DNA of 64,000 bases from Comamonadaceae bacterium (GCA_027488735.1 JAIYBB010000002.1:11053-75052), one strand, 5' to 3'; positions 60,489 to 64,000 are shown, numbered from the stretch's first letter. Notes: generated by a model from the letters alone, not told the origin. Numbers and translations are program-made.

Positions 60489-60564
60489 GGCCCGGTAGCT
60501 CAGTTGGTAGAGCAGCGGATTGAAAATCCGCGTGTCAGTGGTTCGATTCCACTCCAGGCCACCA
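60489..60564 (+). tRNA. tRNA-Phe (anticodon GAA)
   Basis: GGCCCGGTAGCTCAGTTGGTAGAGCAGCGGATTGAAAATCCGCGTGTCAGTGGTTCGATTCCACTCCAGGCCACCA folds as a cloverleaf with one C-A acceptor mismatch. CCA end is encoded. Confidence 0.92.
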
Positions 60565-60571
60565 TATCAAG

Positions 60572-60600
60572 ACGCCCAACTGTTCTCAGTTGGGCGTTTT
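60572..60600 (+). terminator. Rho-independent terminator after tRNA-Phe
   Basis: ACGCCCAACTG-TTCT-CAGTTGGGCGT followed by TTT. Confidence 0.75.
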
Positions 60601-60881
60601 CATTTTGGCGACCGCAAGTTGGTGCGGGGTCCGGCGCGATTCTACGTGTGCCATGCCCCTCCAGCATCCGAGCCGGTAACGGCCCCCGAATCTCATACTC
60701 CGCTCTCTCTTCTCACAAAACTTCTGCGAACACTGACGAAGTGGCACACGCAGAACGCCTTATGTGGCAATGACTTATGCGTGTGTCGCATACGAAGGTT
60801 TTGCGTTCGACTTGCTGAGGCAAACCATGTGGTTTGTGTGTTGTCACACACAACGCGTTGAGAAAATGCCCGAAAAAGTAG

Positions 60882-61826
60882 TCACTCCGCAGCACAAGGC
60901 AACGCGTAGAGACCTTGCCGCTGCTGAGTGATCACCAACTTTTTATAAGCCATCAACGGAAGGTCAGCTCCAGCTTTTCCCTTGTCACGTGACTTCACCT
61001 TGAACACATCGATCGGTTTGTCGCTTTGCAAACCGGCGCGCTCCATGATTCGCTCGGCTCGCATGGGCTCACCCTTGAACGACCAAAGCGACCCAAAAAC
61101 GGAGGCCTGAGCCTCGGTGAGGTTGATGTGGCCAAGCTCTGGTAACAGCACCGAGCGGAAGTCCTCAGCAAAGGGGCCGTAAACCGGTTTAGCGGGCTCA
61201 CGTTGCGTTTCTGTGGGGCGTTGGCCCTGTGGGGCAATAAATGAGATTCCGCCGCCGTAAAAGGCAAACCGCTCCTGGAGCGGCAGCCAATCTATGTCAG
61301 CGGCAAATGGGTGTGCGGTCTGGTCGATAGGTTTGGGCGTGATCACCCGCAACCTAGAGGCGTTGACTCGCAGCGCATCGAGGGTCGCCGGTGCGTGAAC
61401 CAAGCCGGACAAGTTGCGAGCCAGAATGACAGGTCCTTGTCGTGCATCGCCTAGCCGCCAGACGCCAGGACCGACTTGATCGATTCCATCGCGGCTGTTG
61501 ATCTCCATTGCCATGCGCAATCTTTGTCGCAACCAATCCTCGTTGAGCGTGACGGCTGCCATGTCCTGTGGCTCGAGCTGGATCGGACCGCATTCAGGGC
61601 ATTGGCAAAGTCTGCCCCCCTTGCCATCAGCAACGACCTGCCCCCGATGCAAGTTGCAGTATGGGCAAAGTGCGTATTGCTGATTGACGGTAGCAGGCTT
61701 TATAGCGGAGCCTAGCAGTGAGCATGCCGCAAGCTCGTTCGGAGACAGCGCGTACCGAAATACGGGCGGTCCCTCAGCGAACAAGCGGCACACCAATGAC
61801 CATGCGTGATGCGCAGTCACGCTCAC
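60882..61826 (-). CDS. Uncharacterised protein: N-terminal Cys4-type zinc ribbon and C-terminal OmpR/PhoB-like winged helix (tentative)
   Basis: 314 aa. The GTG start overlaps the upstream stop (GTGA). CPYC-x16-CQCPEC at residues 54-79. The C-terminus LTEAQASVFGSLW..GEPM.AERIMERAG...IDVFKVK...LVITQQRQGLYAL resembles a Trans_reg_C winged helix. Confidence 0.6.
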   Translation of the reverse strand: MSVTAHHAWSLVCRLFAEGPPVFRYALSPNELAACSLLGSAIKPATVNQQYALCPYCNLHRGQVVADGKGGRLCQCPECGPIQLEPQDMAAVTLNEDWLRQRLRMAMEINSRDGIDQVGPGVWRLGDARQGPVILARNLSGLVHAPATLDALRVNASRLRVITPKPIDQTAHPFAADIDWLPLQERFAFYGGGISFIAPQGQRPTETQREPAKPVYGPFAEDFRSVLLPELGHINLTEAQASVFGSLWSFKGEPMRAERIMERAGLQSDKPIDVFKVKSRDKGKAGADLPLMAYKKLVITQQRQGLYALPCAAE

Positions 61827-63067
61827 TCCTGGAACGCCGGTTCGGACTGAAATGCGTCCTCACCGGGTTGCTGCTCGTTGGCACTGAGCGTTTGACCCGC
61901 ATCAAGGATGCCAAGGGTCACGAGGTAGCCCTCCAGTTGAGCTTGCATCTTGGCGTCGAACTTGTGAAGGTTCAGCCGCCCTTTGCGGGTGATCTCGATG
62001 GTGATGACCTTGGATCGCATCTTGCCCGGCTGTGGGGGGTAGTACAGATTGATGTGCGCCGAATTGATTTGCCAGTTGCGCTTGAGCGGGTTCTCGCTGG
62101 GGAATGCTTCAGCGATCAATTCGGTCACGCACTGTTGGTCGCTTGATGCTGTTGCGGTGCATTCGATCTTGAGATCACCATGTGGGCTGAGCAGGGACAG
62201 TGTCTTGACCTGAACAGCCATGAAGCCGTCGGTCGTCAAGGCTTGAGGTACATCGAAACCCAGTCGGAGTGCAGACAGATCAAGGGTGGGCGGTTTGATG
62301 CGGTGGGCCTCCACCTTGACGCCCAGCAGGTGCTCTGAGAAGGCCTCGAGCAGCATGGTGTGGTACTTGACTCCGCCTTTAACCAGTGAGCGAGCGACAC
62401 CGGTCTTGGCTGAATACTCCAGCACCATGTGAATGTTGGGATTGCCGACGCGGCGAGTCAGGTTCGAGCCTTCGAACTCGAGGCGCAACATCGCCAGGTC
62501 CTTCACATGAACAGTCAACAGGTAGACATCCGGGGAGCGCTCCAGGACATAAGCCACGCTGCCGTCACCGCACTGCAACTCCCGCTGGTAGAACGCCGAG
62601 ATGGCCTGCCGCATTCCGAGCAAGGCTGCCTCAGACGTGTCGGGTTTGCGTTTCACCCCAAGTTCATTCTGCTGAGCCTGTGATCCATGGCGTTCGAAGA
62701 AGTCAACGTCACCGGCCAGGTCAAAGAGTGCTGGGTAATTCACATACAGCCAGAACGAACGATGGATATCGCTTTGGTTGGAAACGAGCCCCATAAGGGC
62801 GACGCCATCCTGCCTTGCAACCTGGAACATCGCTTGTTTACCAGCCGCATCCCCAAGTGCAACACTGGCCATCAATTTGGCAATGAGCGCGTCTCGAGCA
62901 ATTTCGTCTGGCCATGTCCGGATCGCTTCAATTACGGTCCGGGTGACCTCTTGGCCATCCGACCAAGACAGATCGTCGGGCAACGGCAGACCGTTAGCTG
63001 CCAGGAAGTTTTGGAGAGTGTTGTCTACGGGCAGCTCCAGCAGCACATCGACAAAGGTTTTTTTCAT
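61823..63067 (-). CDS. Uncharacterised protein (414 aa), no recognisable motif
   Basis: ATG 63067 lies 9 nt after AAGGA. Long uninterrupted ORF, first gene of a two-gene operon divergent from an XRE/ImmA pair. Confidence 0.65.
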   Translation of the reverse strand: MKKTFVDVLLELPVDNTLQNFLAANGLPLPDDLSWSDGQEVTRTVIEAIRTWPDEIARDALIAKLMASVALGDAAGKQAMFQVARQDGVALMGLVSNQSDIHRSFWLYVNYPALFDLAGDVDFFERHGSQAQQNELGVKRKPDTSEAALLGMRQAISAFYQRELQCGDGSVAYVLERSPDVYLLTVHVKDLAMLRLEFEGSNLTRRVGNPNIHMVLEYSAKTGVARSLVKGGVKYHTMLLEAFSEHLLGVKVEAHRIKPPTLDLSALRLGFDVPQALTTDGFMAVQVKTLSLLSPHGDLKIECTATASSDQQCVTELIAEAFPSENPLKRNWQINSAHINLYYPPQPGKMRSKVITIEITRKGRLNLHKFDAKMQAQLEGYLVTLGILDAGQTLSANEQQPGEDAFQSEPAFQE

Positions 63068-63283
63068 TTTCTTGGTCCTTATGAAATGTCGGTGTTCTGC
63101 GTGCAGGGGATGCTGGCGCTGGCCGACGGGTGGTAAACAAATACCCCGTCAAAGTAAAGTGGCGAGATACAGCGTAATTGTGTCCCGCTTATTTCCGCTT
63201 GTCAAACTACGTAGAACATCTGGGTGAATGTGTATCTCAGTGCTATACTTTGAGGCTGACTTGATTCAGACAGGAGCTTTTCC

Positions 63284-63631
63284 ATGGCATCGACCCTAGG
63301 AGCGCGTTTACGGCGTTTACGAGAGGCCAAAAAGCTGACGTTGCAGCAGGTAGCCGACGCCGTTGGCTGTACCAAGGCGTACATCTGGGAACTGGAAATG
63401 AAGGAGGGGCAACGCCCTTCTGCCGAGCGGATTCATCTGCTGGCCAAGGTTCTGGGGGTCACGATGGAGGACCTGATGAACGAATCAAATGAGCAGGTTC
63501 CCCAAGCATCCGTTGAAGACGTGGCCTTCTTTCGCCAGTACGCTGGCATGACGGAAGAAGAAAAGCAGCGCTATCAACAAGCCCTCAAACTGATGTTCCC
63601 AACTGCGGGGCAAGAGGAAACCAAGAGTTGA
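63284..63631 (+). CDS. XRE-family helix-turn-helix transcriptional regulator
   Basis: LGARLRRLREAKKLTLQQVADAVGCTKAYIWELEMKEGQRPSAERIHLLAKVLGV is a canonical HTH_3. RBS AGGAG. Confidence 0.88.
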   Translation: MASTLGARLRRLREAKKLTLQQVADAVGCTKAYIWELEMKEGQRPSAERIHLLAKVLGVTMEDLMNESNEQVPQASVEDVAFFRQYAGMTEEEKQRYQQALKLMFPTAGQEETKS

Positions 63632-64000
63632 GTGACAGCGCTCAACTGACCCCGAGCAAGGCAGCCAACACCATCCTGCGATGGATTCGCTTGGCCAGTG
63701 GGGAGGCGGCTGCGTACACAGACCTCGACATGGTTCGAGAGGGGTTGCCTGGCACTCCCTACGGAGAAGGCGTCAAGATCATCAAGCCCCCCATGGCGTC
63801 TCCAGTGAGAAGCTTAGAGGGAATGCTGGTGTGCAACCCGAACGATCCAACCGAATGGGGCATCTTCGTTAATGAGGATGCCAGCCCTGAACGTCGTCGC
63901 TTCACGATTGCTCACGAGCTGGGTCACTTTGTCCTCCACAGAGCCAAGCGGCGCACGTTCAACTGCGACAAAGCAGCAGTGCATCTGAGCTTGGAAAGTG
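63628..64000 (+). CDS. ImmA/IrrE-family (COG2856, M78-like) metallopeptidase, N-terminal part (3' end beyond window)
   Basis: Translated by hand, not in the ORF track. The frame is open from TTG 63628 (TTGA overlap with the XRE stop) to the window end and contains RRRFTIAHELGHFVLH (HExxH). Confidence 0.7.
   Translation, partial: MSDSAQLTPSKAANTILRWIRLASGEAAAYTDLDMVREGLPGTPYGEGVKIIKPPMASPVRSLEGMLVCNPNDPTEWGIFVNEDASPERRRFTIAHELGHFVLHRAKRRTFNCDKAAVHLSLES

Follow-up and report, generated by a model that had tools for sequence, protein, structure and literature searches.

We analysed a 64,000-nucleotide (nt) stretch of DNA from a Comamonadaceae bacterium (GCA_027488735.1, JAIYBB010000002.1:11053-75052), hereafter called the window. 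Its last segment, positions 60565-64000, begins directly behind a tRNA-Phe gene and carries A414 and B314, two genes forming an operon on the minus strand, and genes for an XRE-type repressor and an M78 metallopeptidase. The XRE gene is divergent from A414, with 216 nt between it and the A414 start codon. By comparison with related copies, the segment was identified as the attL end of a temperate phage of ~45-50 kb inserted after the CCA of tRNA-Phe. The features of the locus are as follows.

60489-60564, plus strand: tRNA-Phe(GAA), a host gene (ARAGORN; Rfam 69.5 bits)
60559-60564, plus strand: CCACCA at the tRNA 3' end, the integration junction in the element alignment
60566-60603, plus strand: hairpin terminator, phage-borne (inverted repeat; kept in all element copies)
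60565-60881, no strand: non-coding attachment-site arm of 317 nt, the P' side of attL
60882-61826, minus strand: B314, 314 aa; GTG start in a 4-nt overlap with the A414 stop (GTGA), translationally coupled
61823-63067, minus strand: A414, 414 aa; ATG start with AAGGA 9-13 nt upstream
63154-63171, minus strand: putative operator O2, TGTATCTCGCCACTTTAC on the minus strand; an inverted repeat with the conserved TGTATC-N6-CTWTAC
63177-63205, minus strand: predicted A414-B314 promoter (TTGACA, 17 nt, CACAAT)
63231-63248, plus strand: putative operator O1, TGTATCTCAGTGCTATAC, overlapping the extended -10 of XRE
63241-63249, plus strand: extended -10 of the XRE promoter, TGCTATACT
63284-63631, plus strand: XRE-type repressor, CapH/ImmR-like (HTH_31; capH)
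63628-64000, plus strand: 5' part (124 of 304 codons) of the M78 metallopeptidase gene, CapP/ImmA-like, with HELGH; TTG start overlapping the XRE stop

All coordinates given by a first-pass annotation of this DNA proved correct when the open reading frames (ORFs), the tRNA, and the Rfam and Pfam matches were re-examined. The XRE protein matched HTH_31 in Pfam (5.7e-15) and capH in PADLOC (1.5e-24; positions 3-98 of 103 of the hidden Markov model (HMM), that is, full length). The partial peptidase ORF, which contains FTIAHELGHFVLH (HExxH) and continues past the window edge, matched Peptidase_M78 in Pfam (2.6e-11) and capP in PADLOC (1.3e-15), and a full-length copy with 99% identity matched capP at 2.5e-49 (HMM positions 37-242 of 242). 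The two had been described as a repressor-peptidase pair of this type, and by sequence and layout they are indeed assigned to the CapH/CapP-ImmR/ImmA family, with cleavage of the repressor predicted. A414 and B314 gave no family match in Pfam, NCBIfam, PADLOC or PDB sequence searches, in line with the earlier remark that neither could be placed in a described family. The sole library match of A414 was PHROG 37634, a family of unknown function (1.3e-31). A 312-aa version of B314 is found elsewhere, for which gene callers take a GTG two codons downstream. The Rfam scan of the region detected the tRNA alone, and host and phage did not differ in GC content (0.558 vs 0.562).

The phage element and its attachment site

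An exact-sequence look-up of A414 showed that it is present on many contigs, on which the window's final 3.4 kb recurs at 98-99% identity. The first-pass annotation had proposed looking past 64000 for the rest of the peptidase and an integrase, and both were located in copies of 98-100% identity. There, the remainder of the peptidase (304 aa) is followed by two small ORFs, a DUF2924 gene and, ~3 kb beyond 64000, the gene for a 472-aa large serine recombinase (SerRec) with PF00239 (Resolvase), PF07508 (Recombinase) and PF13408 (Zn-ribbon). After the recombinase come a 156-aa ORF (p156) and then an early/replication block containing p87 (87 aa, Xis-like HTH_17, 6.7e-6), Bro-N, AAA_24, DUF6511, a PD-(D/E)XK nuclease and a D5-type primase. 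Further along, the viral contig encodes a RuvC-like resolvase, a ParB-methyltransferase, and the small and large terminase subunits. Furthermore, the A/B pair was found on 65 IMG/VR viral contigs, typically of 45-50 kb and often ~1 kb from the contig end. Because the copies run on into recombinase, replication and terminase genes, and because viral contigs carry the pair, the element was regarded as a temperate phage.

The nearest relatives of the large terminase subunit in the phage collection were Ralstonia phage records (72%) and Wolbachia phage WO (54%), the latter being the match of the large terminase at L079:18097-20037. In the literature on Wolbachia phage WO, this phage is described as carrying a DUF2924 gene and a serine recombinase; our literature search found DUF2924 only in such papers, and the A/B protein pair was not found. 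These observations suggest a distant common module with phage WO.

When A and B were searched against 50,697 isolated phage genomes by tblastn, zero matches were obtained. The A family comprised 706 clusters at 50% identity among 1.84 billion representatives, and 608 homologues of B314 were found. In a one-genome-per-species set, the A family occurred in 217 stretches, from Burkholderiales, Rhodocyclales, Xanthomonadales, Nevskiales and Acidithiobacillus. The phage family is found in Beta- and Gammaproteobacteria, in over 200 species, and A/B constitutes a widespread, tractable family. Cultured carriers include Macromonas nakdongensis BK-30, Variovorax defluvii, Cupriavidus cauae, Hydrogenophaga intermedia S1 and Comamonas granuli. 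A414 was 100% identical in M. nakdongensis BK-30 (L159, NZ_NWMV01000030.1) and in Limnohabitans metagenome-assembled genomes (L158), behind tRNA-Phe; either the phage has spread across genera very recently, or one of these organisms is the source of the window. In addition, a 9.5-kb cassette-only element was observed at L001:2982-12509, in the order p156-SerRec-DUF2924-p69, cation-efflux/MgtC cargo, ImmA-XRE-A-B-att arm. With the full phage it shares 96-100% identity, its flanks are host katG and ferritin genes, and it is either the product of a large deletion inside the phage or a mini integrative element in its own right.

In an alignment of seven element copies, the homology begins exactly past the tRNA 3' CCACCA, and the upstream sequences are tRNA-Phe genes with differing T-arms, tRNA-Ala(CGC), or a non-tRNA CCACCA site. 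The suspicion of a foreign element at the tRNA 3' end was thus borne out, the insertion being visible in the alignment and the locus polymorphic. A tRNA lies 280-680 nt past B314 in about 50 of 80 named-genome loci (Phe 27, Ala 20, Lys 2, Glu 1), and the junction TGGTGG is invariant in 17 genera. Across L001-L006 and L157-L236, insertion was observed exactly after the CCACCA of tRNA-Phe, -Ala, -Lys and -Glu, and at one non-tRNA CCACCA. The large serine recombinase would have inserted the phage after the CCA of tRNA-Phe. Neither an integrase nor a repeat of the tRNA 3' end had been seen in the window; this holds for the window itself and is explained by the recombinase gene lying past its edge, since large serine recombinases leave no long direct repeat.

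The hairpin at 60566-60603 had been taken for the tRNA's own terminator. It is kept whichever tRNA hosts the element, and contigs with the same tRNA elsewhere carry other terminators; hence it travels with the mobile element. Similarly, the ~280 nt of non-coding DNA reported behind the tRNA is present, as part of the 317-nt arm, but it is element-borne and not the tRNA's own. Arm motifs of the GCACACGCA type lie at 60640-60653, 60742-60755 and 60775-60785, together with a GAGAGAA block, and the arm blocks are conserved across genera in loci whose B proteins are 50-97% identical to B314 of the window. In L053, which has a gene order described below as Type II, the cassette is inverted, yet the arm still adjoins the tRNA. 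Because the arm stays by the tRNA when the cassette inverts, it belongs to the attachment site, and the idea that the ~280-nt spacer is part of the A/B operon was rejected. The att sites of serine integrases are normally minimal, and a long motif-rich arm (~280 nt) next to the crossover is unusual among these enzymes.

Comparison of the tRNA-Phe locus across relatives, which the first-pass annotation had proposed, revealed that the presence of the element is variable. The 3' half of tRNA-Phe (window 60530-60564) was found on 63 metagenome contigs (L237-L299) with many differing downstream sequences, and this 3' end would seem to be a much-used hot spot for integration in these freshwater Burkholderiales. 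The orthologous locus L280 (flank identity 89%) is occupied by another phage of this family, whose A protein is 63% identical. Among L237-L299, at least eight different sequences were counted downstream of the identical 3' half. One of them is a recurrent family beginning TATTCATTGGGTTTGCAGC...GAAAACGTGCT, and others carry hairpins resembling the phage terminator.

Gene orders and predicted control of the A/B operon

Gene orders were compared in ~150 related loci, the contexts past ~50% identity resting on Ralstonia only. In Type I, the order of the window, the att site is followed by B and A, which are transcribed towards it, and then by XRE, ImmA, further genes, DUF2924, SerRec and p156, which are transcribed away from it into the early genes. 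Type II is the Type I cassette inverted: p156, SerRec, DUF2924, further genes, ImmA and XRE are transcribed towards att, and A, B, p87 and the early genes away from it, so that A/B lead the early operon. Type III is without XRE/ImmA; SerRec and DUF2924 are divergent from A and B, which are followed by 2-7 kb of variable sequence, p87 and the early genes. In Ralstonia, DUF2924, SerRec, p156, popP1, A and B are read in one direction, followed by an HTH gene in the other direction and then the early genes.

In all untruncated loci A and B were adjacent. Their identity to the window drops in parallel with that of the recombinase module (A 63/56/51%, SerRec 74/67/45%, DUF2924 70/50/45%), and in Ralstonia the pair is retained beside DUF2924 and the recombinase at 22% identity. 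p87 (HTH_17) is conserved in every member. Variable genes were found in two slots. The first, between ImmA and DUF2924, holds cation-efflux genes, Crp/DUF4395, T5orf172, OST-HTH, or SMODS+SLATT+TIR with DUF499/DUF1156; the second, between B and p87 in Type III, holds HipBA, AbiE, AAA_21-RloB or DUF2971. The hallmark of defence or moron cargo, namely swapping among close relatives and a hot-spot position, was not observed for the pair in these loci. Since the pair is constant, adjacent and co-diverging with the recombinase module, while the variable cargo sits in other slots, comparative gene order assigns A/B to the phage backbone and not to its cargo. The first-pass annotation had regarded the 414/314 operon as cargo and a defence candidate; the constancy and co-divergence of the pair from 22 to 100% identity in four gene orders, together with the absence of a PADLOC match, speak against that proposal.

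Several loci deserve separate mention. Slot 2 cargo (2-7 kb, right after B), including AbiEi/AbiEii, was seen in L046, L049, L062, L064 and L068. On the Imbroritus primus chromosome (L209:885-8867), SMODS+SLATT+TIR and DUF1156/DUF499 lie beside a truncated ImmA gene, and the nearest 10 kb contain no recombinase gene; the locus resembles a prophage end in decay in which defence genes were kept or gained. In Sulfurimicrobium-type phages (L007-L009:12320-12550), B is closely followed by a DUF2188 gene, and DUF2188 has been associated with CapH/CapP-like regulators (bioRxiv 10.1101/2022.04.27.489752). The distant A homologue of Ralstonia solanacearum (megaplasmid/pm01; L075:11884-13113 and L300:12331-15068; 22-23% identity) is labelled 'glycine hydroxymethyltransferase' in GenBank/RefSeq, almost certainly a mis-annotation. 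In strain CFBP2957, the type III effector gene popP1 is cargo between the recombinase cassette and A. L004 was considered as a four-gene remnant and rejected, the arrangement being a cargo insertion at the contig end. Viral contigs searched with very distant A representatives (P0415, P0495) yielded zero loci, and the diverse A alignment (A5) could not serve for scanning genomes because its sequences diverge too far.

To describe the control region, the XRE-A intergenic sequences of loci 52-100% identical, Type II included, were aligned. The A promoter, TTGACA-17-nAnAAT, is conserved throughout, with an invariant -35 and a -10 that keeps nAnAAT. Two inverted copies of the 18-nt TGTATC-N6-CTWTAC, the putative operators, are conserved within variable surrounding sequence. 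O1 covers the XRE -10, O2 comes right after the A414 promoter's -10, and AGTATAGCA is invariant across all XRE-type loci. This layout is that expected of an autoregulated repressor closing both promoters, and the conserved putative operators at both of them uphold the earlier description of a switch divergent from the 414/314 operon. We infer that XRE would repress the two divergent promoters via O1 and O2, and that cleavage of XRE by the CapP/ImmA-like M78 peptidase would follow damage to DNA. CapH/CapP pairs are found in divergent orientation to defence operons (bioRxiv 10.1101/2022.04.27.489752), and their relatives also govern prophages as well as integrative and conjugative elements (ICEs) (bioRxiv 10.1101/2022.04.27.489752; PMC13228613); the switch alone does not, therefore, imply defence.

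Of 20 loci of the XRE-less Type III, 19 carry CTGTATATTTATCCAG, which begins 13 nt downstream of the same TTGACA. This sequence departs from the 20-nt E. coli SOS consensus at three positions, with CTG and CAG both intact. No other AT-rich CTG-N10-CAG was seen across 13-21 kb in seven of the eight Type III loci scanned; in the eighth, L069, there is a second, weaker one. Any CTG-N10-CAG within 300 nt upstream was found in just 9 of 105 XRE-type loci, and such a box was not found at the window's own A promoter. The link of the pair to XRE/ImmA thus holds for the window lineage but is not obligatory, one lineage having a LexA box instead. Because two non-homologous damage-inactivated repressors appear to guard the same promoter in sister lineages, there is strong comparative evidence from which we infer that A/B is meant to be expressed in response to DNA damage.

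Predicted folds and possible role of the pair

The AlphaFold2 model of A414 (predicted local distance difference test, pLDDT, 81) shows an acidic helical N-terminal domain (1-130) and a basic alpha/beta region. In Foldseek searches, residues ~130-390 matched CENP-N/Chl4, Iml3 and E. coli RdgC (E 5e-5 to 1e-3, prob 1.0, template modelling (TM) scores 0.2-0.36). The best of these were CENP-N (E 5e-5) and RdgC 2owl (E 2.4e-4, prob 1.0, TM 0.29/0.36); phage proteins named RdgC (E 1.2e-2) or 'Exonuclease' were also matched. A profile of 60 diverse A members gave nothing significant against PDB and Pfam, including RdgC PF04381, and hhalign of the A profile with E. coli RdgC gave a prob of 0.1. Membership of A414 in the RdgC family was rejected on these negative results, and the resemblance is kept as a predicted RdgC/CENP-N-like fold at the fold level only. 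Conserved catalytic-type residues were not seen in the A family alignment.

For B314, the AlphaFold2 model (pLDDT 85) consists of a zinc ribbon, a middle beta-rich domain and a C-terminal winged helix. The four Cys of the zinc ribbon (C54, C57, C76 and C79) are invariant among homologues. The C-terminal ~90 residues (~225-314), which have an isoelectric point of 9.1, matched OmpR/PhoB winged helices in Foldseek (prob up to 0.98, E 0.05-0.5) and show the motif pattern LTxxQAxVFxALWxxxGxP...R.GLY. A 26-member B profile also retrieved OmpR domains from PDB at weak E-values (0.09-0.6), none significant, and the C-terminus was below threshold against Trans_reg_C in Pfam. In the B family alignment, too, conserved catalytic-type residues were not seen.

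Taken together, it is probable that A414/B314 is a damage-switched backbone operon within the lysogeny-control cassette of the phage, whose DNA-binding-type products act early in induction. We are confident of the framing, according to which a backbone operon silent in the lysogen and derepressed by damage supplies two DNA-binding-type proteins at the start of induction; the specific part of a clamp plus adaptor in lytic commitment or recombination control is put forward tentatively, as a possibility short of even chances. The operon would switch on upon DNA damage, via XRE/ImmA in the window lineage and directly via host LexA in the sister lineage. Neither product looks like an enzyme; B314 would be a sequence-specific DNA binder of the zinc-ribbon/OmpR-type winged-helix kind and A414 an RdgC/CENP-N-like DNA clamp. 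Together on phage DNA at the onset of induction, they would activate or commit the lytic programme, or else modulate recombination and excision. In two of the four gene orders (Types II and III), A/B stand at the head of the early replication operon.

Several points weigh against this interpretation. The order in the window parts A/B from the early genes and places the pair at the prophage edge, where lysogenic-conversion or exclusion genes are often housed. In the Ralstonia arrangement, neither an SOS box nor XRE was found upstream of A. The RdgC/CENP-N likeness is at the fold level only (TM 0.2-0.36), with negative sequence-level tests, and the suggested OmpR-type assignment of B314 carries weak E-values. 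Finally, a missing recognisable effector domain is no proof of a missing effector.

A more far-reaching proposal, which we regard as unlikely but worth stating, is that A414/B314 represent an unrecognised class of SOS-gated phage induction factor, an RdgC/CENP-N-like clamp with its zinc-ribbon/winged-helix adaptor, which would link DNA damage either to excision by the tRNA-CCA-targeting serine integrase, as a new two-protein recombination directionality factor (RDF), or to lytic commitment by antagonising RecA or a repressor. It is rather unlikely that A414 and/or B314 serve as the RDF, or an accessory factor, of the DUF2924/serine-recombinase module, produced solely upon DNA damage, turning integration into excision and perhaps binding the att arm. 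The pair stays with DUF2924-SerRec-p156 in four gene orders and under cassette inversion, and it is kept in the 9-kb cassette-only element L001, although this synteny could merely mirror the gene order of the phage family. The predicted damage-inducible expression would suit such a factor, the conserved repeated motifs of the att arm call for a DNA-binding accessory protein, and RDFs of serine integrases are structurally diverse. However, known RDFs are single proteins, mostly small; p87, with its conserved Xis-like HTH_17, is the more conventional candidate, and DUF2924 and p156 are alternative accessory factors.

It is quite improbable that the pair provides anti-phage defence or superinfection exclusion, kept off by a CapH/CapP-like switch until infection damages DNA. 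The XRE and peptidase do match the capH and capP models, whose members elsewhere lie divergent from defence operons as cited above, and the prophage edge occupied in the window order is a typical moron site. A four-gene block is also retained without a recombinase within 8-10 kb in L201, L202, L209 and L222, but these remnant loci are decaying, with B truncated in L201 and ImmA in L201 and L209. PADLOC-DB 2.0 had no match for A414, B314, or the Type III or Ralstonia homologues, and enzymatic, pore or NTPase domains were not found in either protein with Pfam or Foldseek. Moreover, the pair co-diverges with the backbone and is not swapped, recognised defence and toxin-antitoxin cargo occupies other slots, and in Types II and III the pair heads the early lytic operon. 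A suicidal effector would also abort the phage's own burst, because the SOS signal induces the prophage as well. The first-pass annotation's other idea, an island-maintenance module, may come closer to the truth.

That A414 is a phage RdgC analogue damping host RecA and recombination or shielding DNA ends, with B314 as its loader or regulator, is very improbable: the Foldseek matches to E. coli RdgC and the phage 'RdgC'/'Exonuclease' proteins, the operon's position directly upstream of AAA_24 (Sak4-like), PD-(D/E)XK and primase genes in Types II/III, and its predicted SOS control would agree with it, but no sequence-level relation to RdgC was found, the TM-scores are low, and RdgC has nothing corresponding to the N-terminal domain of 130 aa or to the obligatory partner B.

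Significance and comparison with known systems

A damage-inducible switch at a prophage end is, in its overall kind, already known. What is new is the uncharacterised A/B pair, the swap between XRE/ImmA and LexA at one promoter, and a family of serine-integrase phages that land on the CCA of several tRNAs and bring their own terminator. The predicted damage gating through two unrelated repressors strongly supports a role of the pair in induction, and the XRE/ImmA and LexA lineages offer a natural experiment in the rewiring of prophage induction signals. The locus also calls for caution: an operon without a known family beside a tRNA and a CapH/CapP-type switch mimics a defence island, whereas the comparative context indicates backbone, so that guilt by association with CapH/CapP is risky for defence discovery. 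A serine integrase targeting tRNA CCA ends could be of interest to genome engineers.

As in ImmR/ImmA (ICEBs1, phi105), CapH/CapP of the cyclic-oligonucleotide-based anti-phage signalling system (CBASS) and DdrO/IrrE (Deinococcus), the XRE gene precedes and overlaps the gene of an M78 HExxH peptidase, and the repressor/peptidase pair is divergent from the controlled operon. The co-transcription of repressor and protease genes with the integrase is shared with ICEBs1. Unlike the ICEBs1-type switches, the cassette contains a large serine recombinase with a DUF2924 partner instead of a tyrosine integrase, and, unlike in ICEBs1 and CBASS, the divergent operon encodes two proteins of predicted DNA-binding type, not xis/conjugation genes or known defence.

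LexA-controlled prophage trigger genes include coliphage 186 tum, the Gifsy antirepressors and the GIL01 early promoters. Type III resembles them in having one SOS box, close to the consensus, that overlaps the A/B promoter's -10 and through which host LexA would gate the first genes of the induction phase. In contrast to Tum and Ant, A and B are far larger and unrelated, and the window lineage has XRE/ImmA in place of LexA control.

The basic region of A414 (~130-390) shares its predicted fold with RdgC and with CENP-N/Chl4-CENP-L/Iml3. It differs from them in having no sequence or profile similarity, in the acidic N-terminal helical domain, and in always being paired with B314. The C-terminus of B314 resembles the OmpR/PhoB domains (Trans_reg_C) in predicted fold and motif pattern; however, B314 has no receiver domain and instead carries an N-terminal helical region, a zinc ribbon and a beta-rich domain.

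Finally, the Resolvase/Recombinase/Zn-ribbon serine recombinase near att and the absence of a long direct repeat are shared with phiC31, Bxb1, SPbeta and phage WO. Unlike these serine-integrase phages, the present family targets the CCA end of several tRNA genes and brings a new terminator, and it carries a conserved arm of ~280 nt with repeated motifs beside the crossover.

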